DNA of 64,000 nt from Candidatus Omnitrophota bacterium (GTDB lineage: Bacteria > Omnitrophota > Gorgyraeia > Gygaellales > Profunditerraquicolaceae). Shown piece after piece: positions 1,596 through 61,930 of the stretch. The first letter of the stretch is position 1; each line of letters begins with the position of its first letter. The DNA lies in contig JAQUQW010000001.1 of NCBI GenBank assembly GCA_028716245.1, forward strand, positions 296,793 to 360,792. Reading direction: 5' to 3'. The notes below the pieces were generated by a model. The model saw only the letters and a list, made by a program, of their open reading frames with translations, did no database searches and was not told the DNA's origin. Both the position numbers and the translations under genes were made by a program.

Positions 1596-1613
1596 TTTTC
1601 AAGATCCCCTTCC

Positions 1614-1643: not shown

Positions 1644-1678
1644 TTTTGATGAACTGAAAAATTGAGGAGGAGAGCGTA

Positions 1679-2257
1679 ATGATTAACGCAATTACACAGT
1701 TTAATTTTCTGGATGTTATAATCGTAATTATTTCACTTAGAATATGTTACGTTGCTTTTCAAATGGGTTTAGCCGTTGAGTTTTTTAAGCTTTCAGGGGT
1801 GATCCTGGCAACCTATCTCTCCTTGCATTATTATACCGGCCTTTCAGATATTATTCAGCGCCGATTTATCCCTAAAGGGATGCCTCTGGAATTTATGGAT
1901 CTTCTGGTTTTTATCATTTTAGCCGCAGGCGGATACCTGCTTTTTGTTGTTTTACGCAACTCCTTTTATCGTTTTATGAAATTGGAGGCTTCTCCTAAAA
2001 TCAGCCAATTCGGGGGGCTTACTTTGGGATTAGCGCGCCTGTTTTTTACAGTTGGGCTATTAATTTATATTTTAATGATCTCAGGCATAAAATACCTTAA
2101 TGATTCGGTAAAATATTCTTATTTAGGCAGCCGGAGCACATTAATTTCAAGCAATACCTATGGATGGCTATGGGGCAGTATTATCTCAAAGTTTTCTCCG
2201 AATGAGAAGTTTAATCCCACTGTTACCGAACTCCTGGAGAGATTCAACCGTAAATGA
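1679..2257 (+). CDS. cvpA: CvpA family membrane protein (colicin V production protein-like)
   Basis: The N-terminus has the CvpA signature (FNFLDVIIVIISLRICYVAFQMGL) and the protein has several predicted TM helices. Confidence 0.6.
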   Translation: MINAITQFNFLDVIIVIISLRICYVAFQMGLAVEFFKLSGVILATYLSLHYYTGLSDIIQRRFIPKGMPLEFMDLLVFIILAAGGYLLFVVLRNSFYRFMKLEASPKISQFGGLTLGLARLFFTVGLLIYILMISGIKYLNDSVKYSYLGSRSTLISSNTYGWLWGSIISKFSPNEKFNPTVTELLERFNRK

Positions 2258-3138: not shown

Positions 3139-3141
3139 AAA

Positions 3142-4908
3142 ATGGCTGGTCTTATTCCAGAAAATTTATTAGAAGATATCTTAAGCCGCGTGGATATCGT
3201 TGAGGTGATCTCCGGCTATATTCCGCTTAAGAAGTCTGGCCGTAATTTTAAGGCTAACTGTCCGTTTCACCATGAAAAAACAGCATCCTTTATGGTATCC
3301 GCGGAGCGCCAAATCTATCATTGTTTTGGCTGCGGTGAATCCGGTAATGCCTTTAAATTCCTTATGCGCCATGAGCGGATGGAGTTCCCTGAAGCGGTTG
3401 AGGTGCTGGCAAAAAAAACCGGGGTTATTTTACCTGAACAAAATAACCCGGCGGCGGCCAAGGCAGCCAGCTTAAGCAGCCAACTGCATAAAGTCAATGA
3501 GCTGGCAGTAAGTTTCTATGAGAATAATTTGCATGCTGCAAGTTCGGCTTCAGCATGTAATTATCTCTTAAATAGGGGCGTAAAACTCCAAACGGTAAAG
3601 GAGTTTCATTTAGGCCTGGCAACCAGCAACTGGGACAGCCTAATCAATTATTTAAGGTCAAAAAATATCGCTCTTTCGCTTCTGGAGCAGGCAGGCCTGG
3701 TCATGCCTAAAGATGCCGGGGGATTTTATGACCGTTTTCGCAACCGGATTATTTTTCCTATTTTTGATATTCGCAGCCGGGTAATCGGTTTTGGCGCCAG
3801 GGTAATGGACAATACCCTGCCTAAATATATCAATTCTCCGGAAACCCCGGTCTATACAAAAGGAAGGAATCTTTTTGGCTTGAATTTATCTAAAGATTTT
3901 ATCCGGGATGCCGATTGCGCGATAATTGTCGAAGGTTACCTGGATTTTATGATTCCTTATCAGGAAGGGGCCAAGAACATTGTAGCATCGCAGGGTACCG
4001 CCCTTACCTTAGAGCAGATCAAGTTGCTTAAGCGCTATACTCATAACGTAGTGATGATTTACGACGGGGATACGGCAGGGGAGATCGCCACCTTAAGAAG
4101 CCTGGATATCCTTATTGAAGAAGGCGTGAATGTAAAAGCAGTCCCGCTGCCAAAAGGGATGGATCCTGACTCCCTGGTGCGTAACCAAGGTATCGAAAAC
4201 TTCAAAGCCAAAGTCAATAATGCCAGCAGCTTATTTGATTATAAACTTAATGTTTTAAAGGGCCGTTATGATCTAAAGGAAGCCCACGGCAAAAGTAAGA
4301 TTGCCTCTGAAATGCTTTTGACGATTAATAAGTTTGATAATGCGATCCTGCGGGGAGAATACATTAAGAAATTAGCCGAGGAGATTAAAACTTCCGAACA
4401 TTATATTCTGGAGGAGCTGAACAAATTAAAATCGCCTGTTCTGGTGCGCCAGGCTGCTCCGGAAATTTTAGCGAAGAATAAATCCGAGATTAATCCGGCG
4501 GAAAAGCTTTTAATTAAATTCATGCTGGAGGAGAAAGAATTAATCTCAAGGATCATGCAGGAGCTTTCTCCGTCCGATTTCCAGGATTCCCGGACCGCTA
4601 AAATTGTTTCAGTAATGCATGATTTAGTCCTCCAGGGAAAAAATATCGCCCCCAGCATATTGATGAATTATTTTAGCGAAGATGACGCCAATCAGTTGGT
4701 TTGTGAAACTATGTTTATGCCCGAACTTTTAGATCAGGAAAGGGAAAAAGCCATTAATGACTGCATTGCGCGCATCAAAGTAGAAAGGCTAAAATCAAAG
4801 CGGGAACATTTACACGTGCAGATAAAAAGCGCCCAATTATTGGGGGATGAGCCGAAGTTAAACAGGCTCATTCAGGAATTTCATAATCTTATAAAGAAAG
4901 GCGACTAA
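3142..4908 (+). CDS. dnaG: DNA primase
   Basis: CHC2 zinc finger (CPFHHEKTASFMV...YHCFGCGESGN), TOPRIM region (IIVEGYLDF, DGDTAGE), and the conserved position ahead of rpoD. Confidence 0.9.
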   Translation: MAGLIPENLLEDILSRVDIVEVISGYIPLKKSGRNFKANCPFHHEKTASFMVSAERQIYHCFGCGESGNAFKFLMRHERMEFPEAVEVLAKKTGVILPEQNNPAAAKAASLSSQLHKVNELAVSFYENNLHAASSASACNYLLNRGVKLQTVKEFHLGLATSNWDSLINYLRSKNIALSLLEQAGLVMPKDAGGFYDRFRNRIIFPIFDIRSRVIGFGARVMDNTLPKYINSPETPVYTKGRNLFGLNLSKDFIRDADCAIIVEGYLDFMIPYQEGAKNIVASQGTALTLEQIKLLKRYTHNVVMIYDGDTAGEIATLRSLDILIEEGVNVKAVPLPKGMDPDSLVRNQGIENFKAKVNNASSLFDYKLNVLKGRYDLKEAHGKSKIASEMLLTINKFDNAILRGEYIKKLAEEIKTSEHYILEELNKLKSPVLVRQAAPEILAKNKSEINPAEKLLIKFMLEEKELISRIMQELSPSDFQDSRTAKIVSVMHDLVLQGKNIAPSILMNYFSEDDANQLVCETMFMPELLDQEREKAINDCIARIKVERLKSKREHLHVQIKSAQLLGDEPKLNRLIQEFHNLIKKGD

Positions 4909-4911
4909 CAC

Positions 4912-6465
4912 ATGAAGAAAAAAGAACGACCCACCAAAGATATGGAAAAATTGATTGCCTTGGGCAAACAGAAGGGTTTTCTTACTTACGATGAAGTCAA
5001 TGATCTTCTGCCCGAGGATCTTTCCAGCACCGTGGCCATCGACCATCTTTTTGAGTTGCTGGGCAATGAAGACATCCAGGTAGTTGAAGGCGAGGAGGAT
5101 GCCGGCTTGTCCGCAAGCCGGGCTGCCCAGGATAAACAAAATCTGGCTGCCAACCGGGAGGAGATTATTTGCGAACAGCTTAAGAGTGAAGAGCGTTTTA
5201 TGCCTTTAGATGATCCGGTAAAGATGTACTTGAAGCAGATGGGTTCAATTTCGCTATTGAGCCGGGAAAATGAAATCGAGCTGGCTAAAAAGATTGAGGA
5301 TGCCGAAGATAAATTCAAGCGCGCGGTCCTGGTGACTAAATTTGCCAGAAATGAGGTTTTAATTGTTGCCAATGATATCTTGGAAGACAAGATTAATATG
5401 GAAGAGGTGGTTAAAGAAGATATCCGGATAAAAAAAAGCAGCGTCCTGGGAAGGTTTAAGCGTATTTTAGCCAAAGCTAAGCAGACCCGCAGCGATAGTA
5501 ATGCGATTAATCTGATATTACAGCTTAACTTTACAACTTCCGTAATTGAAGCCGCGGTGCGTAAGCTGAGCCTTTTGATCCGGGAGCTTGATTATCTGAA
5601 GCGTTCGGGAAAAAGGAGTAATCTGCGCTGCCGCCAAATACTAAAAGAACTTGCTCAGCCCTACGGTAAAATTAAAGAGCAGATGAAGTTGATAAAATCT
5701 GCGCATCTTAAGTTTAGCCGCACGAAGAAAAAACTAGTAGAGGCAAACCTGCGCCTGGTTGTAAGTATTGCCAAAAAATATACTAATCGCGGCCTTTCCT
5801 TTTTGGATTTAATACAAGAAGGAAATATCGGATTGATGCGTGCGGTAGAGAAATTTGAATATAAACGCGGCTACAAATTTTCCACTTACGCAACCTGGTG
5901 GATCCGCCAGGCAATAACCCGTTCAATTGCCGATCAGGCGCGGACCATCAGGATACCGGTGCATATGACCGAAACGATCAATAAGATAATCCGTTTCTCA
6001 AGGGTCTTTGTCCAGAAGAACGGGCGTGAGCCCACTCCTGAGGAGATCGCCCATAAAATGCGTTTTCCGCAGGGTAAAATAAAATCCATATTAAAGATTG
6101 CGCAGGAGCCCATTTCATTACAGATGCCCATCGGGGATGAAGGGGATACGCATTTTGGGGATTTTATTCAGGATAAAAAAGCGGTTTCCCCCGCCAATGA
6201 AACCGTCCGTTCCATGCTCAAAGACGAAATGAATTCCGCTTTAAGTACCTTGACTGAAAGAGAGAAAAAAATCCTGGTTTTGCGTTTTGGTATCCAAGAC
6301 GGAGCCGCGCGCACTTTAGAAGAGGTAGGCAATGTTTTTAAGGTTACCCGCGAAAGAGTCAGGCAGATTGAGGCTAAAGCTTTAAAGAAACTCAGGCATC
6401 CGTCACGTTCGCGCAGATTGCGCACCTTTATGGATATGACATTGGCACACCAAAGGGAATATTGA
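4912..6465 (+). CDS. rpoD: RNA polymerase sigma-70 factor
   Basis: Region 2 ([28 protein letters not shown]), region 3 and region 4 ([29 protein letters not shown]). dnaG-rpoD synteny. Confidence 0.9.
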
Positions 6466-8581: not shown

Positions 8582-9301
8582 TTGGCAACAATTGATTTAA
8601 AAAAACAGATCATCGGTTTAGTAAAATTACAGGAATTAGACAGCGAAATTTACGCTTTAGGAAATGAAAAGGCGGCTAAACCCCAGGAGATTGCGGGGCT
8701 TTTGGCTTCTTTTGAAGCAAAAAAACAGGATTTAGCTGAACTGGAAAAAAAATCCCTGGAGATACAAAAACAACGCAAGGAAAAAGAACTGGAACTGGCA
8801 ACCAACGCCGAAGCGGTAAAAAAACTTCAAGGCCAGCTTTATTCTTTAAAAACAAATAAAGAATTTCAGGCTATGCAACAGCAGATTGCCGATAACCAAG
8901 CCGATGGGTCGGTAATCGAAGAAAAGATCCTTATTTCTTTCGAGGAATCGGATAAGATAAAAGCCAGGATTGAAGAGGAAAATTTAAAGTTAAAAAATGA
9001 AGAGAAAATTTTTTCCGAGCAGAAAAAAAAGGTAGAGGCCCGCGTAAAAGAAATAGATGAGCGTTTGAGCCAATTAGATGCCCAAAGAAAACAGGCCGTT
9101 GCGGATATTGACCCGAAGATGCTGCATGAATATGAACGGATCCTGCAGAGCCGTGATGGTTTGGCTATTGCGGCAGTTAAGGATAATTCCTGCGGTGGCT
9201 GCCACATGCTGCTGCCTCCTCAGGTAATTAATTTGATTAAAATGTATGAGCATATCATTACCTGTGAGATGTGCAACCGCATTCTTTACATTAACGAATG
9301 A
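8582..9301 (+). CDS. COG1579-type coiled-coil zinc-ribbon protein
   Basis: Long coiled coil with a C-terminal CGGCHMLLPP...CEMCNRIL zinc ribbon. TTG start with an AAGGAG RBS. Conserved neighbourhood with Nif3 and RNase H. Confidence 0.7.
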   Translation: MATIDLKKQIIGLVKLQELDSEIYALGNEKAAKPQEIAGLLASFEAKKQDLAELEKKSLEIQKQRKEKELELATNAEAVKKLQGQLYSLKTNKEFQAMQQQIADNQADGSVIEEKILISFEESDKIKARIEEENLKLKNEEKIFSEQKKKVEARVKEIDERLSQLDAQRKQAVADIDPKMLHEYERILQSRDGLAIAAVKDNSCGGCHMLLPPQVINLIKMYEHIITCEMCNRILYINE

Positions 9302-9723
9302 GCCATTTGAAAATTTACATCGACGGGGCATCGAAAGGTAATCCGGGCGAAAGCGGGGTGGGAGTTGTTATTTATCAGGATGACCGCATTATCAAAAAAA
9401 TTTCAGAATATATAGGGAGCGCTACGAATAACGCGGCTGAATATACGGCCTTAATCTATGCCCTTGAGGAGGCGTTATTATTAAAAGCCAAGAGTTTAGA
9501 GATTAACACGGACAGCCAGCTTTTGGCCAGGCAATTAAATAAGCTCTACAAGGTTAAACACGCGGGTATAAAAAATTTTTACAACCGGGTAACGCATCTT
9601 TTGACGGGTTTTGATAAAGCGCTGATTATTCATATTCCGCGGGAGCAAAATAAATTAGCGGATAAATTGGCAACCGAAGCGGTTAAAAAAAGCAGGCAGA
9701 ACGTGGCTGCCCTATTGAGATAG
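9298..9723 (+). CDS. rnhA: ribonuclease HI
   Basis: IYIDGASKGNPGESGVGVVI, TNNAAEYTALIYAL and DSQLLARQL catalytic motifs of RNase H type 1. Confidence 0.85.
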   Translation: MSHLKIYIDGASKGNPGESGVGVVIYQDDRIIKKISEYIGSATNNAAEYTALIYALEEALLLKAKSLEINTDSQLLARQLNKLYKVKHAGIKNFYNRVTHLLTGFDKALIIHIPREQNKLADKLATEAVKKSRQNVAALLR

Positions 9724-10025
9724 GGAGGAAAGTCCGGGCTCCAGAGGATAACGTAACGGGTAACCCCCGTCTCTTAACGCAAGTTAAGACGGATTCGAGC
9801 CACAGAGACGAGTAGCAGCTAAGGCTGCGAGGTGAAACGCGGCAATCTCTACGTGGAGCAAAGCAGAATAGGAGATGAGCGCTGATCCGGCGCGTTCCGT
9901 ATTTGCGGGAAATAATCTCGGGTAAGCTGCTAAAGTTCCGGGAGAAATTCCGGGATTGAGAGGAATAGCCACTAATCGATGCGCAGATTCGCATCAAGAC
10001 AGAACCCGGCTTATTCTGCCTGCTT
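9690..10025 (+). ncRNA. rnpB: RNase P RNA (bacterial type A)
   Basis: Universally conserved GGAGGAAAGTCCGGGCTCC at 9724-9742 and ACAGAACCCGGCTTA at 9999-10013. P1 helix AGCAGGCAGAA (9691-9701) pairs with TTCTGCCTGCT (10014-10024). The 5' end overlaps the last 30 nt or so of rnhA. Confidence 0.8.
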
Positions 10026-10047
10026 AATTATTAAAGAGGAGGAAGTT

Positions 10048-10803
10048 ATGTCAGGTCATTCTAAATGGAAGACAAATAAGGGGAAAAAAGGCATCGCTGA
10101 TGCTAAAAGAGGGGCAACCTTCACCAAGATTATCAAGGAGCTGGTGGTGGTGGCCAGGGACGGCGGCGGCAATCCCGATTCTAATCCCCGATTACGCGCA
10201 ATAATGCAGAAGGCCAAAGAAGCGAATATGCCTTCGGATAACGTGAAGATGGCAATTAAACGCGGAACCGGCGAGCTGCCCGGGGTAGTCTATGAGGCGG
10301 TAATGTATGAAGCTTACGGCCCGGGAGGCGTTGCGATTTTAATCGATTCGCTTACCGATAATAAAAATCGCACTACCGCCGAGCTGCGTAATCTTATGTC
10401 CAAAAGAGGCGGCAATATGGCCGGGGCAGGCGCGGTAAGCTGGATGTTTACGCAAAAAGGCTATATCTCGGTGGCTAAAGAAAAGATCAAGGAAGATGAA
10501 CTGATGAATATTGTCCTAGATGCCGGCGCCGAAGATATGAAACACGATAATAATCTCTATGAGATTTTCACTTCGATCCAGGATTTGGAAAGAGTAAAGG
10601 CGGCGCTGCAGGAAAAAGGGATCAAATGGGATGACGCGGAGTTAACCATGATTCCCTCATCCACGATTAAAGTTACCGGCAACGAAGCCAAGCAAGTGTT
10701 GGCTTTGATAGAATCGCTGGAGGAGCATGATGATGTGCAGCAGGTTTATGCTAATTTTGATATTCCGGATGAAATTTTAGATCAGGTTGCTTCTGAGCAA
10801 TGA
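10048..10803 (+). CDS. yebC: YebC/PmpR family DNA-binding transcriptional regulator
   Basis: MSGHSKWKTNKGKKGIADAKRGATFTKIIKEL is the canonical N-terminus. AAAGAGGAGG RBS. The ORF-track start at 9979 lies inside rnpB and is rejected. Confidence 0.9.
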   Translation: MSGHSKWKTNKGKKGIADAKRGATFTKIIKELVVVARDGGGNPDSNPRLRAIMQKAKEANMPSDNVKMAIKRGTGELPGVVYEAVMYEAYGPGGVAILIDSLTDNKNRTTAELRNLMSKRGGNMAGAGAVSWMFTQKGYISVAKEKIKEDELMNIVLDAGAEDMKHDNNLYEIFTSIQDLERVKAALQEKGIKWDDAELTMIPSSTIKVTGNEAKQVLALIESLEEHDDVQQVYANFDIPDEILDQVASEQ

Positions 10804-11282: not shown

Positions 11283-11905
11283 TCTCTGGAATTACCGGAA
11301 AGGTTCTGGAAAAAGGTTTAAATTATTTAGTCCTGGATTTATGCGGGCTAAGTTATGAGGTTTTTATACCCACTTGCGTTATGCAGGGGCTTGATAAATC
11401 CATGGCTTGCGATGGTAAGATCTCCCTGTTAACCTATCATTATTATCAGGTTGAGCAAGCCAAGAGTATTCCCGTATTAATCGGGTTCTTAAGCCAGGTG
11501 GAAAAGGATTTTTTTGAAATATTTATCACGGTTTCCGGTATCGGCCCGCGGGCGGCGCTAAAGGCCTTAAATAAACCCATTTCATTAATCGCTAAAGCTA
11601 TTGATGAAGGTGATTTAGTTTTTTTAAAATCCCTTCCCGGTATCGGCGAGCAAAGGGCAAAAGAAATCGTGGCTAAGCTGCAGAATAAAGTAGGTAAATT
11701 CGGCCTGATCAAAGATCACGGTATAGAAGAAAAAACCGCCTGTAAAGATATATCCGAAGAGGCTTTGGATGTTTTGTTGCAATTAGAGTATAAAAGATCA
11801 GAGGCGCAGGGCATGATTAAGAAAGTTTTAGAAATGAATTCCGGGGTCAGCACTACCGAGGAGTTGTTGAATCTAGTGTATAAGCAAAAACGGGCTGGCA
11901 GGTAA
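11279..11905 (+). CDS. ruvA: Holliday junction branch migration protein RuvA
   Basis: The N-terminal OB fold (GKV....YLVLD) and HhH motifs (GIGPRAALKAL, LPGIGEQRAKEIV). Confidence 0.85.
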   Translation: MISGITGKVLEKGLNYLVLDLCGLSYEVFIPTCVMQGLDKSMACDGKISLLTYHYYQVEQAKSIPVLIGFLSQVEKDFFEIFITVSGIGPRAALKALNKPISLIAKAIDEGDLVFLKSLPGIGEQRAKEIVAKLQNKVGKFGLIKDHGIEEKTACKDISEEALDVLLQLEYKRSEAQGMIKKVLEMNSGVSTTEELLNLVYKQKRAGR

Positions 11906-11907
11906 AG

Positions 11908-12498
11908 ATGGAAGAGAATAATTTAAAATCCGCTGTTGAAGCATTAATTTTTGCATCCGAAAGGCCCGTTACCTTAGAGCAGATAAAAAAGGTCCTGGGG
12001 ATTACGGATAATGCCAGCGTAAATAAAATTATTGAAGAATTAAGAAGCGAATACGAAACTCAAAATAGGGGTATCCGCGTAGTCGAGGTTGCCGGAGGGT
12101 TTCAGATGACCACCTGCGCTGTTTTTGCCCCCTTCTTAAAAAAACTATTTAAGAACCGTTACAGCGATAAGTTATCCCGGCAGGCTCTTGAGAGCCTGGC
12201 GATTATTGCCTATAAACAACCGTTGACCAAGGCCGAGATTGAATCTTTAAGGAACGTGAATGTCGATGGGGTGATGAAAAGCTTACTTGATAAAAATTTA
12301 ATCCGCGTTTGCGGAAGAAAAAAGATCCCCGGCAGGCCTTTTGTTTTTGGGACAACCCGGGAATTCCTGGAGCATTTCGGTTTAAAATCGCTGCAAGATT
12401 TGCCAAAGATCGAAGATTTCACGGTGATGGCGCAAAAAAAGGAAGAAGAGGCCGGTATAGAGCCGCTTAGCCAAACAGACCTGGAGGTTAAAGAATGA
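11908..12498 (+). CDS. scpB: segregation and condensation protein B
   Basis: EALIFASERPVTLEQI and winged-helix repeats typical of ScpB. Confidence 0.8.
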   Translation: MEENNLKSAVEALIFASERPVTLEQIKKVLGITDNASVNKIIEELRSEYETQNRGIRVVEVAGGFQMTTCAVFAPFLKKLFKNRYSDKLSRQALESLAIIAYKQPLTKAEIESLRNVNVDGVMKSLLDKNLIRVCGRKKIPGRPFVFGTTREFLEHFGLKSLQDLPKIEDFTVMAQKKEEEAGIEPLSQTDLEVKE

Positions 12499-21169: not shown

Positions 21170-23899
21170 ATGAAAAAGCTATTATTCAAATACAGTGGCA
21201 GAGCGCTAGCAAGTTTGGCGCTTTTATCTTTATCGGCTGGTTTGGTTTTTGCCCAAAGCCAGGCGGCAGATTATCTTTGTGAATTGGGTAAAACTTTCTA
21301 TTCTTTAGGCAAGGTTGACGATGCCCTTTCCGAATTTCATAAGGCCCTTCTGGCGGATCCTGCCAATGAAACTGCCAAATTGTATATTAATAAAATTTTT
21401 AATCAAAACTTGAATTCTTCTTCTGAAAATATGGCCCCCGTAAGCGCTCCTGTCTTAGAAGCTAACAATTCAACTGAACCCAAAAAATATATGAGTAAAG
21501 AACAGGCTATGGATGAGGCGATGCTTAAGATGGAACCCAATACTGCCTCAAAAAAAGAGAGCAAAGGAATAAAGGCCGGGCCGCTTACCATAAGCGGACA
21601 GATGCAATTAAGCTTTGGCGTAACTGCCGATGATTTTATCTGGAAAAGGGCTAATTTTGATTTAAATGAAAAATCGAAAAGCTGGCGGATGAGTTCAGAG
21701 GCGGGTTTTAATAACCGGTTCAATACTTTTGATCCCCGGATCTACGATGGCTTAGCTGTTAATTTAGATACGGAAAATAAAGAAGGCTTCAATCTTCATT
21801 CCAATCTTACGGTTGACCCCTGGAGTTTTACCGGTAAGAGCAGTAAAACTACCATTACCAACGGTGGAGACCCCGCCGAAGTAGAATTATTATATTGGTC
21901 AAACACCGGGCTTGTGGTAAATCACACTGTTTACGGGGCGCTGAAAGGAACCACTCTTAATATTCCGGAGCTAAAGGTTGTTGATGAAAAAACTACCGCG
22001 ACCACGATTAATGGCTTTAATATCCCGAGCATGAAGATCCAGCGCCAGTTTCAGCCGGTGCGTGAATTATGGATGGATTACGCAAATGACCAGATAAAAT
22101 TCCGCGCTTTCCCCATGGGCCTGCAGGATCAGGCTTACAGTTCCGATGATCCTATGGGAATCAGCAATCACCATATCTGGTGGAAGGATAGCAGCTGGCT
22201 GCGTAGTTATACCCCCGGAGCGGCCCATTCCGGAAACACTCCCGTTGATTTTACCAAAGGCATTTGGGATGATTCCCTTTCATTTCTGACCAAAGATTCT
22301 ACCGGCAAATACCTTACGGCTTTAAGGGGCTTTTCTTTTAGCTTTTTACCGGATGAAAAATCTTCATTCGATACAACCTTTGCCACTCCTAAGCATCTCT
22401 GGCAGGATTACGGACAAGCGGATAACGTGATTAATGCCAGCCGTCTTAAACATTATTTCACTGATAATTTTATGGCTGGGGCAACCTTTACCAGCCGCAC
22501 GGGCTTTATCACTGAACCTAACCAGAAGCTAGACAGCCAGAATTATGTTGGCGGAGTAGATATTGGTTATGAAATGACCGAAGGATTAAAAGCACAGGCT
22601 GAAGTTTTATCCTCCCAATCTTTTTATGATATGAGTAATTCCGTTTTTAAGACACAGGCCCGCGGCAACGCCTATTATTTTTCATTTATCAGCCGTTACC
22701 CCCAGAAAAGTTTAATGGATTTAAAATACGGTTACGATGAGATAGCTTTGGATAAAGATGAAGATTACCTGCTGAAATCCAAATTTTACTTAAGCAGGAT
22801 GGACCGCGGATTTGATTCTTCTCTTTCCAGTTACCATGAAACCCGCCAGGATACCTTTTGGTCAAGGCATATTCATTTTCGTAAACCAATGGATTATTAT
22901 TCCGCAGGATTATACGATTCTACTACTAATTGGGGGGAGCTTAATTCAACACGGATTGGTGATGGCATTGATGCCGGCAGAAATACCATTGGTTTTCGCG
23001 TTGAATCATCCCTGAAAGATAAAGTCTATAACCTTTTCGACGTACGCAATGTCCATAATGTTAACGGTAAATTTATCGAGAATGTGGTGCGCGATGAAGC
23101 AACGGTAGGAGTTACGGATAAATTAAGCGCCAAAATTCTGGGTATTTACCAGAAACTTCCGCGTACCCTTGGCGGGACCGATCCGTTTATCTATGACGGC
23201 AATACCGGTAATTTTTTTCTCAATGCCGCTGTCCCCGATGGGAATAACCCGTCGATTATCACCGGATCCTTTGGCCTTAATTATGATTTCTTTGATTGGT
23301 TAAGTTTAAACGGTATTTACGAACGCACCAATGATTATTATCTGGCTTATGATGGTTTTCCGGCCAATACTTTACGCGACGATACCAATTTATTCGGTAG
23401 ATTTCATCAAAATGATAACCTTTACTCATTTAAACAGCCGTTTCTTTATAGCCAAGGCGGGTTTCCTCAAGCCCCATACGAATATTATAATGTTTTTAAG
23501 ACCGGCCTAAGAATAATGCCGATTAATAACCTGGAGCTTTACCTTGATTATACGCGTAATCAATTCGAGAGTGCCGCCCAAAACTCGGATGGGATGAACC
23601 ATGTTGGCATTGAAATGACTTATATGCCAACTAAGAAGTTCGGAATGGCTTTAAAATATACTTACTCCCGGTGGCAGGATACTGACCGGCTGGTTGCCGG
23701 CAACACTAACCCGCTTGGCCACCATAATTTCTTCGGTGAATTTAGATATCTGCCTTCCAGGGATGATGAATTTATCCTGCAATACGGAGAGGGCAATACC
23801 AGTAATTTAGGTAACTTTTCCCTTGATCCTTACGGAGGCACCTCCCTCACCATTGATACTGCGCATATCTTGCGCGCCTATTACCGCAGAAAGTTTTAA
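21170..23899 (+). CDS. large secreted outer-membrane beta-barrel candidate (909 aa) with N-terminal TPR-like helix pair
   Basis: Signal peptide (MKKLLFKYSGRALASLALLSLSAGLVFAQS), a beta-rich body with alternating hydrophobic residues, and a C-terminal YYRRKF ending in Phe (OMP targeting signature). Confidence 0.6.
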   Translation: MKKLLFKYSGRALASLALLSLSAGLVFAQSQAADYLCELGKTFYSLGKVDDALSEFHKALLADPANETAKLYINKIFNQNLNSSSENMAPVSAPVLEANNSTEPKKYMSKEQAMDEAMLKMEPNTASKKESKGIKAGPLTISGQMQLSFGVTADDFIWKRANFDLNEKSKSWRMSSEAGFNNRFNTFDPRIYDGLAVNLDTENKEGFNLHSNLTVDPWSFTGKSSKTTITNGGDPAEVELLYWSNTGLVVNHTVYGALKGTTLNIPELKVVDEKTTATTINGFNIPSMKIQRQFQPVRELWMDYANDQIKFRAFPMGLQDQAYSSDDPMGISNHHIWWKDSSWLRSYTPGAAHSGNTPVDFTKGIWDDSLSFLTKDSTGKYLTALRGFSFSFLPDEKSSFDTTFATPKHLWQDYGQADNVINASRLKHYFTDNFMAGATFTSRTGFITEPNQKLDSQNYVGGVDIGYEMTEGLKAQAEVLSSQSFYDMSNSVFKTQARGNAYYFSFISRYPQKSLMDLKYGYDEIALDKDEDYLLKSKFYLSRMDRGFDSSLSSYHETRQDTFWSRHIHFRKPMDYYSAGLYDSTTNWGELNSTRIGDGIDAGRNTIGFRVESSLKDKVYNLFDVRNVHNVNGKFIENVVRDEATVGVTDKLSAKILGIYQKLPRTLGGTDPFIYDGNTGNFFLNAAVPDGNNPSIITGSFGLNYDFFDWLSLNGIYERTNDYYLAYDGFPANTLRDDTNLFGRFHQNDNLYSFKQPFLYSQGGFPQAPYEYYNVFKTGLRIMPINNLELYLDYTRNQFESAAQNSDGMNHVGIEMTYMPTKKFGMALKYTYSRWQDTDRLVAGNTNPLGHHNFFGEFRYLPSRDDEFILQYGEGNTSNLGNFSLDPYGGTSLTIDTAHILRAYYRRKF

Positions 23900-23901
23900 A
23901 A

Positions 23902-23966
23902 CTAGGGAGCGCTTCTATTTTTCTTTCAGAACTATGTAACAAAAAAAATAGAAACGGTCCCTAGTT
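23902..23966. terminator. bidirectional intrinsic terminator hairpin between convergent genes
   Basis: CTAGGGAGCGCTTCTATTTTT at 23902-23922 is complementary, with 2 mismatches, to AAAAATAGAAACGGTCCCTAG at 23944-23964. It has T-runs on both sides. Confidence 0.6.
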
Positions 23967-23967
23967 T

Positions 23968-26900
23968 TTATTCAAGATAAATATCGATTTGCTTAATTTG
24001 GCGTGATCTTACTTTTTGGGCATAAAGCGGGCCAAGCGTTGCGGATTTTATTTCTATAGGGTGATCGTTTTCAAAAATGATTATTTTGGAAATTTTTGCC
24101 GCGTTTTTTCCAAAAGTATTTTTTCTTTTCGGATTATGGTAAGTTACCCGGATTTGGCTTAAGAAATTAAAAGCATATTTTCCATTCCTATCGAATAACC
24201 AGCCGGCCAGGTTTGGTTTAAATGTTAAATTAAGCTCTCCGTTATTATCTAAAGAAAATGGGCAGGCCCCGGCATTCATGATCAACCAGATATTCAGGAA
24301 TTCCGCGGTTGAGCCGGAGAGCCTGGCGACAAATCCGTTTCCGTGCAATTTTTTATCGGCAAACACGCTGCTTACCAGAAAAGAGGAATTTTCAAGTATG
24401 CTGCGCCCGTATCTTTGCGGGTCCTGGAAAGGGATGAGCACGTTTTTAAATTCCGCGTAAAATTCATCAATCAACCCGCCTTTAAGCAGCTCCAGGATAT
24501 ATTTATACTCCATATGCAGCCAGATGGATTCATTTTCCAGCCAACCGGGAGTGAATACCCGACATCTGCCGATTTCTTCCGGCATAGAACCAAGGTTGGA
24601 AGTCACTTTATACATTCTAAGTTTTTTATCAAAAAGCGCGCTTTTCTTGGTTGATTTATGCAAAGACAAGAGATGTTTTTTGTCTTCGGTAAGCCTTAAG
24701 GCATGCATTTGGCCTTCAAGAAAGAGAGGGACTGTTTTTTGGGTAAATTTTTTCGGTTTTATACGGTGATCATCAATCAAATCATATTCGGTAATCTCAT
24801 TAATAAAATATGAATTATAAATCCCTTGCCTGCTGTTAAAAGCTTTGCTTAATCCCAACTCAACTTTCTTTAATGCCGCGTCCACAAAACTAATAAGCTT
24901 GGCAACGGCCAAATTTACCGAAATCCCGGAAAAACCAAGGCGTATATTAGAACGGTATGTTTCTTTTAGCGCATTGCTCTTATCCCAATAAGTAAAATCA
25001 TCCTCAGAGAACAAGAGAGAGAGCCCCTCGATAAAATTAGAGATTTCATCGGCAAGTTCAATTTCATTAATCTTTGAATTTTCTAACGCCCCTTTGATCA
25101 TCTTAAGCAGGCGTTTTAGTTCAAAGGTTTCACAACTGGAGGAACCCAAAAGCGCCGGCAGCCCGTTAAGAGAATCAAACCAGTTAGGTTTATTGGCTTC
25201 CATCTCGATACCGGTACCAAAAGGGTCAAGGGAGGCCAATTTATTCGCCGCCAGGCACAGAAGTTTAGCGATAAGGGTAGTGTAATAGATTTGGCCGCTG
25301 CCGGACTGTGCCCTTAAAAGATGCGGATTATCCAAACGTTTGCGCAGTATTTCTTTTTTGGTGGCATCAAGCACAAGGGAGTGCAATTGGCGCGGCAGGC
25401 CGTTATAAAGGACGTATCTTTCGCTGCGCGGCCTGACTAATTCGGCGTTATCATAGAAGGAAAAAACTTTTCGGTGAAAGAATAATTCATTAAATCTTTC
25501 AGGGTAAATCCCCAGGTAACTGTCGATTAAGTCCAGGTTATAGGTCCAGTGGTCAGTCCAAAAGCCTTCAGCATGCTCAGCTTCCTGTGATTTTAGCGCG
25601 GAAGAGAGTATCAGATTTAGAAAATCATCATAAGAACATTTAAGTTTTATTTTATTATCTTCAATAAAGATAATTAACTCACCTGGGGTGAAGGTTTTTT
25701 TAAAAAAGGCGCTAAGTTTATCGATATCATTTTTTTCAGCCACGGCTGCCAGCAGCCTGTAAAGATCCAGGTTGTCTTTGAGCAGGAAACTTTCGCCTTT
25801 TACGATCAGGGGATTAAAACCGTCAGCCTGGATTAGATTCATGAAGAAGACAATATTTTCATCGTTTATCTCAGGATTAAACCAGGGATCATTGCGCCGG
25901 TTTTGGTTTGTATCGCGGTAATTACCGTTGCCTTGGGAAAAATAAGTCGGCTGGAGCACAAACTTATTGTAATCCCTTTCCAGGTCACCGTGTTTACGTG
26001 AATAAAGATAAAAAACCACCCCGGATTTAAAAACTTCCGGGTAGCCGCCGCGCATAATGTTATCCAGGTAAGTCTGTCCGGCGTATAAATCAAAAGCTTT
26101 AGAGCTGCTTTGAGTTAAAATATCATCTTTTAATTCCCGGATTAGTTTGGAACTTTCCTTCATTTTGGTTTCTATGTAACCGAATTTCATAATTTTTCCA
26201 ACCGAACTATTTAAAGTTTTGGTGTCGCGGACCTGGCCGATTACCGAATAAAATGTTTTTTGCTCTTTGGCCCCCAGCTCAAGGCTCATTAAAAGCAAAG
26301 CGCTGGGAGTTTTACTTTTGGTCATTTGCTGGGCAGGATATTGAAATTTATGCTTGGCCAGGAATTGGGCAGGGTAAGAGAAATCGGTTACTGCCCCAAA
26401 AACAGCTTCAGGGTCGACTATTGGCCGGATAAGTTGGGATTTGGTACCATTAAAATGAAAACCCATATAAAAATTCCCGTGCTCAATATGCACTACCTCC
26501 GGCCGGTCCGAAGGGTCAACTGCTAATTTATAAAAAGGGACATCATTATTCAGGTTATCGGTATTCATCCAGGCTTCGATAGTGCGGCCGAGTTTCTTCA
26601 GGAAAAAATTGTTCGTGCCAAAAGGGACAATCTGCGGCAGACCGTCAATAATCTCCATGGACCTGGGTTTAGGCGACGTATTTTCAATAGAAACGGTCCG
26701 GCTTAAGCCGGCGTAGGTATCATTAGGAATATTAAAATATTCTACGCGTGTTTTTATCCCTAATGTCCGGTTTTCTTCTTCCAAAATGAGTTTATCCGAA
26801 TCTATACGCATAGAGTTGGTTATCTGGTACTTTAAATTCAGGCAGCCGTTGTGAAACGGCTCGTAATAGAGAAGTTTTTTTGCGGATTTAATTTTAATGA

Positions 26901-27272: not shown

Positions 27273-27330
27273 TTGATGGAATCCAGGATGTTGACTTTTA
27301 ATAAAAGGGTGTTAGAATATTAAGAAATAA

Positions 27331-27420
27331 CACCCCGCGCTACCTGGCGTTTAATTGAATTGCGCCAGTATCCGCCTCGTGGCGGATTATAATGCGGGTG
27401 TGCCCTTGTGGGCAAGGAGG
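27331..27420 (+). promoter_or_regulatory. structured leader element copy A (ACCCCGCGC ... GCGGGTG family) immediately upstream of gatC
   Basis: CACCCCGCGC pairs with GCGGGTG, enclosing hairpins CTGGCG/CGCCAG and TCCGCC/GGCGGA. A terminal hairpin GTGCCC-TTGT-GGGCA abuts the SD AAGGAGG. It is homologous to the elements at 33631, 50851 and 61881. Confidence 0.4.
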
Positions 27421-33625: not shown

Positions 33626-33630
33626 CTAAT

Positions 33631-33727
33631 ACCCCGCGCTAAAGACACCCGACGCTAAGAGGTATTGTGTAGGTGTGCGCTAAGTAGCGCAAATTGCGCG
33701 GGTGTGCGCTTTCTGCGCAAGGAGGAG
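33631..33727 (+). promoter_or_regulatory. structured leader element copy B (longest copy, with internal duplication) upstream of the mgtC-bactofilin operon
   Basis: ACCCCGCGC ... GGTATTGTGTAGGTGTGCGCTAAGTAGCGC ... GCGCGGGTG, then hairpin TGCGC-TTTCT-GCGCA, then AAGGAGG. The 3' module co-varies with copy A. Confidence 0.4.
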
Positions 33728-43680: not shown

Positions 43681-43728
43681 AATAGGGACAGCGACCATTT
43701 TTTTAAAAAAAATGGTCGCTGTCCCTAT
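43681..43728. repeat. perfect 24-bp-arm palindrome in the divergent spacer between the flippase gene and tilS
   Basis: AATAGGGACAGCGACCATTTTTTT | AAAAAAATGGTCGCTGTCCCTATT, with no loop. It fills most of the divergent intergenic space. Core shared with the other palindromes. Confidence 0.5.
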
Positions 43729-43750
43729 TTTCTATGGTAAAATAAGTTTT

Positions 43751-44710: not shown

Positions 44711-44715
44711 AATCA

Positions 44716-44765
44716 GGGACCGTTTCTAGTTTTTTGGGGAAAAATAGAAACGTTCCCTAGTTTTT
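44716..44765 (+). terminator. intrinsic terminator after tilS (repeat-family hairpin)
   Basis: GGGACCGTTTCTA at 44716-44728 pairs with TAGAAACGTTCCC at 44745-44757, followed by TAGTTTTT. The right arm is nearly identical to the right arm at 23944-23966. Confidence 0.55.
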
Positions 44766-49839: not shown

Positions 49840-50656
49840 TTCCCATAAAGTCAGCTATGGGCATATCTTGATTTTGGCCGGCTCAAGCAGGTTTTCCGGA
49901 GCCGGTTTGCTTTGCGCGGAATCAGCTTTACGTTCCGGAGCAGGATTAGTAACATTAGCTATACCCAAAAGTATTAACCTGGCGTTAATTAAAAATAAGG
50001 CAAATGAAATTATGACCTTACCATTACCGGAAACTAAAGAAGGAACATTGAGCCTTAAAGCTTTTACGAAGATAATTTCTTTTCTTAAAAACGCCGATGT
50101 GTTGATCATCGGCCCTGGGCTTGGAAAGAACGCGTCGACTTACGCGCTAATCAGAAAAATTATCAGAAAAACTAAACTGCCCATGGTCCTGGATGCTGAT
50201 GCGCTCAACGCTCTCAATAATCACTTAGAGATACTTAAAACCCACAAAGACAGCCTTATTTTGACACCGCACGAGAGAGAGATGTCTTTGCTCTTTGGGA
50301 TAGATCTTGATTTTATAAAGAAAAACAGGAAATTGGTTGCCAAAAAGTATTCAAAACATTATAATAATATAATTATCCTTAAAGGGCACAATAGCATTGT
50401 AAGTAACGGCAGCGGTCAGTGTTATATAAACAGGACCGGTAATCCCGGAATGGCAACTGCCGGAAGCGGGGACGTATTAAGCGGCATAGTTGGCGCATTC
50501 CTGGCTCAAGGCTTGGATGCGTTTAAGGCGGCAAAATTTGCAACTTATATTCACGGCTTAGCCGGTGACTTGGCAGCAAAAGATAAAACGCAAATGGGAT
50601 TAATTGCCTCGGATATTATCATTAGGATTCCGGATGCGATTAAAAGATGCAGTTAG
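49790..50656 (+). CDS. nnr: ADP-dependent NAD(P)H-hydrate dehydratase (YjeF C-terminal domain family)
   Basis: RKADSHKVSYGHILILAGS...GAGLLCAESALRSGAGLV...GSGDVLSG. The start is uncertain: 49748, 49790 or 49802. It overlaps the acpS 3' end. Confidence 0.7.
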   Translation: MLKPMRLPTRLLRRKADSHKVSYGHILILAGSSRFSGAGLLCAESALRSGAGLVTLAIPKSINLALIKNKANEIMTLPLPETKEGTLSLKAFTKIISFLKNADVLIIGPGLGKNASTYALIRKIIRKTKLPMVLDADALNALNNHLEILKTHKDSLILTPHEREMSLLFGIDLDFIKKNRKLVAKKYSKHYNNIIILKGHNSIVSNGSGQCYINRTGNPGMATAGSGDVLSGIVGAFLAQGLDAFKAAKFATYIHGLAGDLAAKDKTQMGLIASDIIIRIPDAIKRCS

Positions 50657-50657
50657 T

Positions 50658-50730
50658 GCCGGCGTAGCTCAGTTGGCAGAGCGGCTGTTTTGTAAACAGC
50701 GGGTCGGGGGTTCAATTCCTCTCGCCGGCT
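50658..50730 (+). tRNA. tRNA-Thr (anticodon UGU)
   Basis: Manual fold. Acceptor stem GCCGGCG/CGCCGGC, anticodon stem GCTGT/ACAGC with loop TTTGTAA. Confidence 0.85.
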
Positions 50731-50746
50731 TTTGATAAATAAAATC

Positions 50747-50833
50747 GGGCAGGTACCCAAGTTGGTCAAAGGGGACAGACTGTAAATCTGTTGCACTTGT
50801 GCTTCAGAGGTTCGAATCCTCTCCTGCCCACCA
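50747..50833 (+). tRNA. tRNA-Tyr (anticodon GUA), long variable arm, CCA encoded
   Basis: Acceptor stem GGGCAGG/CCTGCCC, anticodon loop CTGTAAA, and a long extra arm. Confidence 0.85.
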
Positions 50834-50850
50834 TTTTAATACTTTCGCAG

Positions 50851-50900
50851 CACCCGGCGCTAATAGGTATTGCGTCGGTGCGCGCTAGGTAGCGCGGGAG
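50851..50900 (+). promoter_or_regulatory. structured leader element copy C, inserted between tRNA-Tyr and tRNA-Gly; its 3' end merges with the tRNA-Gly acceptor stem
   Basis: CACCCGGCGCTAATAGGTATTGCGTCGGTGCGCGCTAGGTAGCGCGGGAG is about 85% identical to the central part of copy B (33631-33690). The terminal GCGGGAG is the first 7 nt of tRNA-Gly. Confidence 0.4.
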
Positions 50901-50964
50901 TAGTTCAGTGGTAGAACAATAGCCTTCCAAGCTATATATGGGGGTTCGATTCCCCTCTCCCGCT
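50894..50964 (+). tRNA. tRNA-Gly (anticodon UCC)
   Basis: Acceptor stem GCGGGAG/CTCCCGC, anticodon stem ATAGC/GCTAT with loop CTTCCAA, discriminator U. Confidence 0.85.
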
Positions 50965-50979
50965 AAAAAACCATCTATT

Positions 50980-52428
50980 ATGGATAGTGCTATAAAAGAG
51001 GTTCTGCCTAAATTAATTGAAGATGCCGACGTAATAGTGCTTTATTTAGACAACCAAGAAAATATTCTTCTCTGTAATAAAAAAGTCCGGGAATTAACCG
51101 GCCTCAAAGATACTGATATTATAGGCAAAAACTGGCTTAAGGTATTATTCAGGCATTCAGATAATAACATTAAGAGAGCTATGTTTAAAGCAGTAATGGA
51201 TGATTCTCTAACTTATAAAAGGCCAAAAGATTTTGAATGCCACATTTTAGATAATTCCGGTAAAAATCGCCTCATCTCCTGGAGTATTAACCCAATCTTG
51301 GACAAAGACAATAAAGTTGAAGCAAGCACGCTCTTTGGACAGGATATTACGGAAATAAAAGGAAGAGGGGCTGCGATAAAAAATATCGATGACTCCTTAA
51401 AAAATATCTTCTCCAGCATAAAAGAATATGCTTTATATGTGATTAATCTTGACGGGAAAATAACTTATGTCGGGATGGGATGCCTTGCCATGCTGGGTTG
51501 GGATAAGAAAGATATTATCTTTAAACATGCCAACATCCTGCATAATATTGAAGGAGAACTGCCTAATTTGGATTTCATCCTAAAACAGGTACGCTTATTG
51601 GGTAAGTACGAAACAGAAACTGAACTGGTTACTAAGGATGAAAAAATTATTCCGGTTATATTGACCGTCAACCAGTTTTTGGACCCTTCAGGTAAGCTTT
51701 CAGGCTTTATTTTTATCGCTAAGGACATGACCGAAAGAAAAAAACTGGAATACCAAATCTTCCAGGCTGAAAAGCTGGCGGCCCTGGGGCAGCTCTCCGC
51801 AGGGATGGCCCATGAGATCAATAACCCTCTTTTTGTTATTTCCGGCAGGTTGGAAATGCTCAAACAGGAAGAAGTCAATCAAAAGGTTAAAGATGCCCTT
51901 AGCTTAATCGGTTCTCAAACCGACCGTATCCGTAATCTCGTTGACAGGATCCTGAGGTTTTCCCGTAAATCAACCACAACTTTGGAACCAATTGACATCA
52001 ATGAGGCTATTGAAGCTGTCCTACCCTGGGTCCAATATAATAAATTGCCAAGCGCTGAAGTTGTCCTTGAGAAATCTTTTACAAAAAATATGCCTAAAAT
52101 CAAAGGAGACCTCCATCAGCTGCAAGAAGTTTTTCTGAATCTCCTGATTAACGCTTATCAATCAATGCCTAACGGAGGAAAAATTAAAATTATTACCAGT
52201 AAATTCGATGACCATTATGCCCAAATCCAGATTATCGATTCAGGGGTGGGAATCCCAGCGCATCATCTCAAAAATATTTTCATGCCTTTTTTTACAACCA
52301 AAAAAGAAGGCTTAGGCTTAGGGTTATCCATTTGCCATAATATTATTAAAAACCATAACGGTTCAATTGAGTTAACGAGTAAAATTAATCAAGGGGCGTC
52401 TTTTACCATTAAACTGCCTTTTATTTAA
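50980..52428 (+). CDS. PAS-domain sensor histidine kinase
   Basis: Two PAS-like regions, the HisKA H-box (GMAHEINNPLFVISGRLEML), and HATPase_c (DSGVGIP...GLGLGLSICHNII). The ATG at 50980 was chosen because the ORF-track start lies inside tRNA-Gly. Confidence 0.8.
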   Translation: MDSAIKEVLPKLIEDADVIVLYLDNQENILLCNKKVRELTGLKDTDIIGKNWLKVLFRHSDNNIKRAMFKAVMDDSLTYKRPKDFECHILDNSGKNRLISWSINPILDKDNKVEASTLFGQDITEIKGRGAAIKNIDDSLKNIFSSIKEYALYVINLDGKITYVGMGCLAMLGWDKKDIIFKHANILHNIEGELPNLDFILKQVRLLGKYETETELVTKDEKIIPVILTVNQFLDPSGKLSGFIFIAKDMTERKKLEYQIFQAEKLAALGQLSAGMAHEINNPLFVISGRLEMLKQEEVNQKVKDALSLIGSQTDRIRNLVDRILRFSRKSTTTLEPIDINEAIEAVLPWVQYNKLPSAEVVLEKSFTKNMPKIKGDLHQLQEVFLNLLINAYQSMPNGGKIKIITSKFDDHYAQIQIIDSGVGIPAHHLKNIFMPFFTTKKEGLGLGLSICHNIIKNHNGSIELTSKINQGASFTIKLPFI

Positions 52429-61880: not shown

Positions 61881-61930
61881 CACCCCGCGCTTAGCGGAAT
61901 TGTGCGGGTGTTGTCTCCGTAGACAAGGGG
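61881..61930 (+). promoter_or_regulatory. structured leader element copy D (minimal unit) immediately upstream of cimA/leuA-like gene
   Basis: CACCCCGCGC-TTAGCGGAATTGTG-CGGGTG, then hairpin TTGTCT-CCGT-AGACAA, then GGGG and the ATG at 61936. The 3' hairpin co-varies with copies A and B. Confidence 0.4.

Follow-up and report, generated by a model that had tools for sequence, protein, structure and literature searches.

The window analysed here, 64 kb of DNA from a Candidatus Omnitrophota bacterium, carries a tRNA operon in which a short structured repeat, called copy C below, lies between the genes of tRNA-Tyr and tRNA-Gly. ARAGORN and Rfam place on the + strand tRNA-Thr(UGU) (50658..50730, Rfam tRNA score of 65.7 bits), tRNA-Tyr(GUA) (50747..50833, intron-free in the window) and tRNA-Gly(UCC) (50894..50964, 5' end GCGGGAG), which bears out the thrU-tyrU-glyT-like order read by an earlier note on this DNA. 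In operons of the thrU-tyrU-glyT-thrT-tufB type, the Thr-Tyr-Gly tRNAs are followed by thrT and tuf. As the earlier note had also seen, neither comes next here. The following gene encodes a histidine kinase with the Pfam domains PAS, HisKA and HATPase_c (50980..52428, its start codon being probably the ATG at 50980), an arrangement that is conserved in relatives. Upstream, a strong sigma-70-like site (TTGCCA-17-TATAAT, 11/12 matches) lies at 50337-50365, inside the 3' part of nnrD and about 290 nt from tRNA-Thr; its sequence makes it a candidate for the promoter of the tRNA operon.

The 60-nt spacer between tRNA-Tyr and tRNA-Gly, which includes GCACCCGGCGCTAATAGGTATTGCGTCGGTGCGCGCTAGGTAGC, begins with a unique part, TTTTAATACTTTCGCAG (50834..50850), which in the alignment is common to the orthologous spacers of L004 and L002 (L-numbers are labels of related or metagenome loci). 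Copy C follows and forms two hairpins, P1 and P2. In P1, the 5' strand CACCCGGCGC (50851..50860), whose third C is bulged, pairs with the 3' strand GCGTCGGTG (50872..50880) through eight Watson-Crick pairs and one G.U pair, around the loop TAATAGGTATT (50861..50871), which fits the family consensus T-W-A-n-n-n-G-G/T-W-A-T-T. The P2 hairpin, C-GCGCT-AGGT-AGCGC-G (50881..50896), ends inside the tRNA gene, its last 3 nt being nucleotides 1-3 of tRNA-Gly (2 nt of the 3' strand, 3 nt with the closing C-G pair). The copy thus does adjoin the 5' end of tRNA-Gly, as had been claimed, and it is a genuine repeat copy: a covariance model of the family matches 50849-50881 with 44.5 bits (E=1e-11), and positions 50850-50895 are identical at 39/46 positions to 33645-33690, the inner part of another copy (copy B). 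Furthermore, the same P2 sequence is found behind canonical P1 stems in L011 and L116, and the same loop type in L029, L049 and L068. The tRNA-Gly gene occupies the place where a Shine-Dalgarno (SD) sequence usually stands, so that no SD and start codon follow this copy. No tRNA-like fold was found within 50834-50893 (ARAGORN; Rfam at E<=10), and 50640-51000 gives three tRNAs only. No terminator is predicted in the spacer, and no T-tract follows the unit. In the predicted fold of the precursor, P1 is kept beside an intact cloverleaf, the acceptor stem beating the 3-bp overlap with P2.

The three other copies reported earlier, A, B and D, were all found again, on the + strand and intergenic, and the covariance model gives exactly four strong matches on the window, one per copy (D 49.5 bits, C 44.5, B-inner 41.6, A-inner 40.6). 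Copy D (61881..61930, motif 61881-61926), between lysC and the citramalate/isopropylmalate synthase gene cimA, is a bare unit: P1 with its 11-nt loop (61881-910), P2 (61911-26), then an SD (61925-30) and the ATG at 61936, with AAGG on either side of a 44-nt insert. Copies A and B are long forms: the loop of their outer P1 houses a further unit together with that unit's own P2. Copy A (27331..27420, motif 27331-27414), in the 5' untranslated region (5'-UTR) of gatC, consists of an outer P1 (27331-40 with 27394-400), an inner unit (27341-70) and its P2 (27371-86), the outer P2 (27401-14), an SD (27414-20) and the ATG at 27426; a promoter-like site lies at 27291-27318, and the unit begins about 6 nt from the predicted transcription start. 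In the same way, copy B (33630..33725, motif 33630-33719), between tsaD and a gene of the MgtC family, has an outer P1 (33630-39 with 33696-704), an inner unit (33646-75), an inner P2 (33676-91), the outer P2 (33705-19), an SD (33719-25) and the ATG at 33731.

These copies belong to a family of units of 45 nt with 55-67% G+C. P1 is a stem of 9 bp in which CA(C)CnnnCGC pairs with GCGnnnGGUG and one C is bulged; its loop, of 11-12 nt, is conserved as UWAnnnGGWAUU (T-W-A-n-n-(n)-G-G/T-W-A-T-T). P2 is a 5-6-bp hairpin right after P1, with loops of the NNGT type, mostly ending in GT. The units begin with RR-CACC and finish with GGTG-T. A scan of metagenome contigs with the exact canonical pattern, by which the metagenome loci were picked, returned at least 120 stretches; family counts rest on the matches listed, which include 101 short units (29-31 nt) as well as 31 forms that are long or nested. 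In 0.9 Mb of related DNA, a strict search for the hairpin yielded 186 units, against 13 in reversed-sequence controls. The 48 distinct units that were aligned never vary in the CA..C and G.UG base pairs, and compensatory changes occur in 6/9 P1 pairs (55 cells), a level reached by 0/500 shuffles. Since the alignment seeds were chosen for pairing, the percentage of paired positions follows by construction; the variety of the stems does not. In metagenome loci totalling 576 kb, the covariance model, built from this alignment, gives 143 matches at E<=1e-3. A P2 of 5 bp or more begins 0-1 nt after P1 in 119/138 units, against 6.5% of random positions, and P2 stems show 52 distinct sequences. Rfam 15 gave no match to the window at gathering score, nor to copies B and D even at E<=10, and no literature match was obtained for the unit sequences or for Omnitrophota/Omnitrophica RNA motifs. 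The family is abundant in Omnitrophota metagenomes and apparently undescribed. A viral origin was considered and rejected (0 matches in 2.9 million viral contigs).

The genomic context of the units is highly regular. Behind 90/118 unit clusters, the same strand carries an SD, a start codon and an open reading frame (ORF). The SD starts 13-15 nt after P1, directly behind P2 (within 0-2 nt); for the inner units of long forms, it lies 40-44 nt after P1. The stop codon of the upstream gene is 0-30 nt away in 51/91 clusters and falls inside the P1 loop in 9/76 cases. Most units thus lie between cistrons, with their 3' side as the anchor. It is always co-oriented with the downstream gene. For example, the units of L068 that precede rsfS and argS are on the + strand and those that precede rpmB on the - strand, so that orientation follows the gene. 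The downstream genes are unrelated housekeeping genes, such as those of EF-Tu, PGK, S8, L6, L16, SSB, ACP, ClpP, IlvC and NusA, and the DnaK leader is occupied too. Orthologous leaders of S8, SSB and glutamine synthetase retain the unit with compensatory changes. Three independent tRNA genes, those of tRNA-Gly in the window, tRNA-Pro(GGG) in L002 and tRNA-Pro(CGG) in L076, have a unit exactly 13 nt upstream, and in all three P2 extends 2-3 nt into the tRNA. The fold is shown by covariation, and co-orientation and anchoring to an SD or to position +1 of a tRNA are shown as well.

Several more specific readings of this context were tried and rejected. A few clusters have no SD behind them; those of L034 lie at the 3' end of a gene or operon, upstream of rRNA promoters, and could be taken for rRNA-leader elements, except that they stand at the end of the preceding gene. 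A promoter within the unit or at a fixed distance from it does not fit, as sigma-70-like sites lie 12-26 nt upstream at variable positions and most units directly follow a stop codon. A CsrA-type leader with two sites, a GGA in the P1 loop and another GGA in the SD, agrees with the loop GGA of 62/78 SD-proximal units; in many other units, copy C included, GGU replaces it or it is absent, and hundreds of housekeeping leaders make a specific regulon implausible. Nor is the canonical P1 restricted to SD-proximal units, as canonical units also occur as inner units.

The proteins encoded in the window are close to those of Candidatus Omnitrophota/Omnitrophica metagenome-assembled genomes (NnrD 70-93% and CimA 75-96% identical), and ten orthologous Tyr-Gly spacers could be read. 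That of L004 has flanks like those of the window and, nested in the loop, a 47-nt unit with its P2; behind these come the outer 3' box GCGCGGGTG, another P2 and GCGGGAG. The outer P1 of L004 is mispaired, which makes it a degenerate copy. In L002, about 125 nt of nested units occupy the same loop. A junction, GCGCTAGGTAGC/GCGGGA..CTCCCGC, is also left there as the fossil of a collapsed tRNA-Gly, and downstream of it lies the functional tRNA-Gly. The closest relatives by NnrD, L139 and L001, have unit remnants only (...ACTAGGTAGC/GCGGGAG and ...CGTCGAGGATAGC/GCGGGAG, respectively), and there is no unit in L005, L006 (14-nt spacer), L007, L008 and L133. From the junction shared by L004 and L002 and the remnants in L139 and L001, it follows that copy C is old and that its P2/tRNA junction is ancestral.

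The tRNA-Gly gene itself varies among these loci. L008 and L134 have a second type of tRNA-Gly, with the 5' end GCGGGTG: L134 has this allele at 1-58, and L008 has at 11903-12034 a truncated pseudo-tRNA of the GCGGGAG type followed by a tRNA-Gly(UCC) of the GCGGGTG type. The collapsed acceptor-stem fossil of L002, GCGGGATACTCCCGC, lies at 9675-9690. At this locus, tRNA-Gly has undergone replacement or duplication in L008, L002 and L134.

Outside the tRNA operon, seven loci syntenic with the 50-64 kb part of the window were fetched via CimA homologues and scanned with the covariance model. Across the eight syntenic genomes, whose CimA proteins are 87-95% identical, occupancy differs. The pilZ leader holds a unit in L130 and L134. 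The lysC leader is occupied in L131, L133 (decayed) and L134 (long form), with half-units in L130 and L008. Units are also found in the cimA leader of the window, of L134 (same flanks, with a 48-nt nested unit) and of L133 (decayed), in the groES leader of L135 and in the groES-groEL spacer of L131, while L132 and L136 have no unit in about 21 kb. Copy D, before cimA, and the pilZ copy of the nearest relative, L130, are identical at 43/44 positions, variable loop and P2 included, and the window and L130 each have no unit at the site that is filled in the other. The filled cimA site reads ...GTAAGG-(44 nt)-AAGGGGTAAC.., with AAGG on either side of the insert; the empty sites read ...ATAAGGGGTAAC.. 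in L136 and ...TAAGGGGTAAT.. in L131. Copy D and its counterpart in L134 make up a nested filled/empty pair. The LemA-leader copy of L002 has no orthologous gene in the window or in the other relatives. In L135, positions 291-3621 hold an insertion of mobile genes between gpsA and pilZ of the syntenic block, with a serine recombinase, a DDE transposase and an HTH/NTP-transferase/HepT toxin-antitoxin pair.

Decay and multiplication of the unit can both be seen. Half-units of the form CACCCCGCGCTTATAAGGAG..ATG precede lysC in L130 (8387-8400) and L008 (20690-20703); the loop is SD-like, and UAAGGAG, the left part of the P1 loop, now serves as Shine-Dalgarno. From their sequence, such half-units would be the expected residue of a deletion between the AAGG of the loop and that of the SD. 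Arrays reach up to four levels of nesting and about 350 nt. Those of L068, which are 250-350 nt long, nested and tandem, lie at 660-1030, 1409-1660 and 5290-5600 (- strand), upstream of rsfS, argS and rpmB, and a mechanical ORF call runs straight through the argS array. All arrays are direct tandems or nested, on the strand of the gene. Variable occupancy, a near-identical moved copy, nesting and half-units therefore indicate a copy-paste, deletion-prone element and not a gene-specific regulator. They show that the family turns over fast, by copy-paste and deletion, insertion into loops, tandem arrays and decay to half-units and remnants. The mobility proposed by the earlier note thus holds for the family. 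The tRNA-like ends that it suggested as the means find no support: ARAGORN and Rfam detect no tRNA-like fold in the element, and the mobility is seen mainly at mRNA leaders.

Taken together, these results make it likely that 50851-50896 is an intact copy of a 45-nt, two-hairpin mobile interspersed repeat, which is old, is not derived from a tRNA and is probably a tolerated passenger of the operon. The unit would be co-transcribed as part of the 5' leader of tRNA-Gly, would fold on its own and would be discarded when RNase P cuts before G50894; with such a removal, copy C would probably be tolerated. The family would spread by an oriented process acting on DNA, with a preference for purine-rich GG/AAGG in single-stranded or loop DNA; these targets are SD sequences and the unit's own loop. 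Such a process would by itself explain co-orientation, adjacency to the SD and self-nesting. Its agent could be an enzyme that recognises hairpins on single-stranded DNA, or it could be template switching induced by the hairpins. Copies would persist only at places whose ribosome-binding site or tRNA stays usable despite the fold.

Some observations weigh against this explanation. Nested sites have no target-site duplication, and the 5' flanks of units overall are only purine-rich. A crude scan for HUH...Y motifs in all ORFs of 1.06 Mb of fragments gave none, a result that is uninformative, and no mobilising enzyme was found. As the metagenome loci were selected by an exact pattern, the conservation of the P1 sequence in this set is partly there by construction. 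Co-orientation, the conserved loop, the covarying P2 and the essential or highly expressed genes behind the units would fit a function at the RNA level equally well. Among single stem mismatches, G.U outnumber A.C (15 vs 8), a weak hint of selection on the transcript. Furthermore, the recurring 13-nt spacing and a T-to-C change in the linker, by which P2 closes on nucleotide 3 of the tRNA, could point to a role of P2 in the handling of the pre-tRNA. As for the duplications, a clean AAGG repeat is seen at the cimA site only, and the SD-like motif of the left flank was rejected as a target-site duplication (SD-like 4-mers are no more frequent within the 16 nt upstream of P1, 25 of 73, than further upstream, 22 of 73).

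Alternatively, the unit would be a functional cis-acting RNA module, with the P1-P2 stack as a nuclease-resistant, insulating cap at the 5' edge of a ribosome-binding site or of a tRNA, and mobility as a secondary trait. A lineage-specific RNA-binding protein or RNase might read it through the loop and the bulged C. This is possible, if on the unlikely side. Constant co-orientation, a P2 only 0-2 nt from the SD and the usual intercistronic position, with a stop codon 0-30 nt upstream in 51/91 clusters, agree with it, as do loop nucleotides conserved even in units that lie outside the constraint of the search pattern. The covariation of P2, the compensatory changes by which the S8, SSB and glutamine-synthetase leaders keep their unit, the occupied leaders of EF-Tu, ribosomal proteins and DnaK, and the excess of G.U over A.C mismatches also do so, and in copy A the distance between the unit and a predicted transcription start is about 6 nt, as expected of a 5' stabiliser. 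However, the occupancy of orthologous leaders varies at about 90% protein identity, down to none in 21 kb of L132 and L136, and decayed copies, half-units and four-deep arrays are unexpected of an optimised regulator. Moreover, the L034 units sit at an operon 3' end with no SD behind, and at the tRNA locus the copy is degenerate in L004 and lost in L001 and L139. It should be emphasized that this explanation and that of a mobile repeat are compatible, not mutually exclusive: a benefit at the RNA level, such as insulation of the ribosome-binding site, 5' protection or recognition by a factor, may coexist with mobility.

A bolder combination of the two can only be put forward tentatively, and we regard it as doubtful. 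The unit would be a new type of miniature mobile element that seeks GG/AAGG sites which are purine-rich and single-stranded (SD sequences, G-rich tRNA 5' ends and its own loop), inserts with an orientation set by transcription and has been co-opted across Omnitrophota as a portable, self-folding 5'-UTR or intercistronic module, read by a dedicated factor through the loop and the bulged C.

That the unit serves RNase P, E or III as a dedicated signal for processing, which would separate tRNAs and cistrons, is improbable. The earlier note had thought of an RNase P/RNase E processing spacer, and the intercistronic position, the fixed 13-nt distance to +1 in three tRNA genes and a P2 that stops at the boundary of a functional RNA would suit such a role. 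However, an RNase P minihelix would need another topology, as the 3' strand of P1 has its partner upstream, and most orthologous tRNA spacers have no unit and are presumably processed normally. Processing applies to any tRNA spacer, and about 80% of the members of the family precede the SD sites of mRNAs, not tRNAs. As for RNase III, its usual substrates are longer than helices of 9 bp plus 5-6 bp, and those of the unit would be short for this enzyme.

An origin of the element from the 5' end of tRNA-Gly, or from a tRNA, by templating, recombination or descent, is very improbable and already largely refuted. It goes back to the register used by the earlier note, in which the GCGGGAG of tRNA-Gly occupied the position where the other copies have GCGGGTG. 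On folding, the boxes CACCCCGCGC (5') and GCGCGGGTG (3') pair with each other; what the other copies have as GCGGGTG belongs to P1, being its 3' strand and the partner of the 5' box CACCCCGC. Its counterpart in copy C is therefore GCGTCGGTG (50872-80) and not the GCGGGAG of the tRNA: copy C has its own P1 3' strand and P2. The spacer of L004 carries both GCGCGGGTG and GCGGGAG, with the P2 hairpin between them, so that the box and the tRNA 5' end are separate entities; GCGGGAG is no homologue of the GCGGGTG box. In addition, GCGGGAG is invariant in 9/10 orthologous loci, with or without the element, including the element-free 14-nt spacer of L006 and, among loci that never show the element, L005 and L133 as well; the tRNA end is therefore not derived from the element, and the idea that the element was templated on it or recombined with it finds no support.

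There are resemblances on which this origin could still draw. The stretch TAGCGCGGGAGT (50890-50901) is like the canonical TTGCGCGGGTGT at 10/12 positions, the basal 7 bp of the canonical P1 equal the acceptor stem GCGGGTG...CACCCGC of the alternative tRNA-Gly allele in L008 and L134, and there is GC microhomology of at most 2 nt at the P2/tRNA junction. Against this, tRNA-Leu(GAG) likewise begins with GCGCGGGTG, most copies stand at mRNA leaders, and 1.4% of shuffles, as well as other tRNAs, reach or exceed the similarity of P2 to a D-arm. The derivation of P2 from a tRNA D-arm was rejected, its alignment scoring no higher than those of shuffled P2. The tRNA-Leu(GAG) at 4246 of L011 begins with GCGCGGGTGG, which is the full 9-nt P1 3' strand, so that G-rich acceptor 5' strands resembling the box are not rare. 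The resemblance of copy C to the tRNA 5' end is coincidental, and its apparent fusion to it is a 2-3-nt overlap combined with a mis-registered alignment.

Chance similarity of GC-rich tRNA flanks is excluded, because 186 units stand against 13 in reversed controls, and this alternative, together with that of P1 as a palindromic operator for a dimeric transcription factor, which its near-perfect inverted repeat might recall, has a negligible probability given the E value of copy C (1e-11), the compensatory stem changes around a conserved loop, and the nested and tandem arrays and hundreds of copies before unrelated genes. The earlier note had proposed that relatives with the same spacer, if it lacked any likeness to the other copies, would reveal chance similarity; L004 and L002 share the spacer, and their copies are even more canonical.

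The mobile repeat recognised here can be compared with several known systems. By distribution, judging from these comparisons, it appears closest to MIRU, which are elements of 40-100 bp, intercistronic in operons and co-transcribed, with filled and empty sites and tandem copies (PMC3184786). Like the unit, MIRU show tetranucleotide direct repeats at a filled site (here AAGG at cimA) and have ends that overlap neighbouring ORFs (here a stop codon in the P1 loop in 9/76 cases) (PMC3184786). The unit is intercistronic and co-oriented as they are, and no ORF spans it, whereas MIRU, with about 40-50 copies, owe their definition not to a conserved two-hairpin fold but to small ORFs, through which the flanking genes are coupled; self-nesting and a placement that abuts the SD are not described for MIRU, which belong to another phylum (PMC3184786). 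By architecture, the unit is closest to the REP2 of Neisseria and the IR of Borrelia, which have no terminal inverted repeats, form two predicted RNA stem-loops and lie right upstream of ORFs with the ribosome-binding site at their 3' side (PMC3184786). However, REP2 carries a promoter, a ribosome-binding site as well as an ATG, and marks 14 co-regulated genes (PMC3184786), whereas the unit has no promoter, is only 45 nt long, lies inside operons, nests or forms tandems and precedes unrelated housekeeping genes and tRNAs.

The likeness to REP/BIME and to MITEs is more general. REP/BIME are short, GC-rich, imperfect palindromes, extragenic and abundant, with compensatory changes and composite arrays, and they are a source of intergenic polymorphism (PMC2817692). 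They differ from the unit by a GT(A/G)G head, an alternating orientation and an inverted pair flanking rayt (PMC2817692); the units have no GTAG/GTGG head and no alternating or inverted arrays, and no RAYT was seen in the crude motif scan of the 1.06 Mb of fragments. MITEs such as Correia/NEMIS, ERIC and RUP are, like the unit, non-autonomous and co-transcribed, with stem-loops and filled and empty sites, and they can alter the expression of neighbouring genes, which is counted among the likenesses (PMC2229807). Unlike the unit, they measure about 100-200 bp, are A+T-rich and have terminal inverted repeats, TA termini and target-site duplications (PMC2229807). The unit is 45 nt long and G+C-rich, has no TA ends and no consistent duplication, and its P2 lies outside the inverted repeats of P1. 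Since the defining features of REP/BIME and of MITEs are lacking, the unit is grouped with the small structured interspersed intergenic repeats, none of which has been described from this phylum.

What is known of small interspersed repeats such as REP, MITE, MIRU and REP2 comes mainly from cultivated members of the Proteobacteria, Firmicutes and Actinobacteria, and the unit would be the first repeat family of this kind described for the uncultivated phylum Omnitrophota. Its mix of traits is unusual: a length of 45 nt, strict co-orientation with genes, a position welded to the ribosome-binding sites of housekeeping genes, including cistrons of ribosomal-protein operons, self-nesting up to four levels, and moves from leader to leader on the time scale of species divergence. 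It provides a natural experiment on the amount of structure that a bacterial translation-initiation region tolerates, and a natural marker by which strains can be typed. Should there be a cognate enzyme, this may be a new hairpin-guided tool for DNA or RNA. There are also practical consequences, as gene callers can be misled by ORFs that run through arrays, and as the unit breaks assemblies: the contigs of two relatives, L137 and L138 (NnrD 93% and 89% identical), stop inside tRNA-Thr or tRNA-Tyr, which suggests that the cluster of tRNAs and repeat is where metagenome assemblies break.

Other features were seen in the tRNA operons of relatives and elsewhere in the window. In L001 (10987-11267) and, at the same position, in L004, L007 and L008, about 215 nt interrupt the anticodon loop of the tRNA-Tyr(GUA) gene; in L001 this insertion is a group I intron (Rfam Intron_gpI, 90.7 bits). 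ARAGORN misses these interrupted genes. Between tRNA-Thr and the intron-bearing tRNA-Tyr, L008 (10990-11664) and L007 (about 9735-10340) have an ORF of about 200 residues that holds a IAGIMLYWAEGT motif and gave no significant Pfam match; that it encodes a homing endonuclease is only a guess. In the window, a second repeat family (23898-23968, 43681-43729, 44715-44765) consists of long AT-flanked palindromes built on AGGGA(C/G)CG(T/C)TTCTATTTTT. They lie at gene ends and between convergent genes, and from their sequence they look like shared bidirectional intrinsic terminators. Lastly, the gene of a bacterial class A RNase P RNA (166.7 bits) lies at 9692-10027 of the window and overlaps the predicted ORFs 9298-9723 and 9979-10803.

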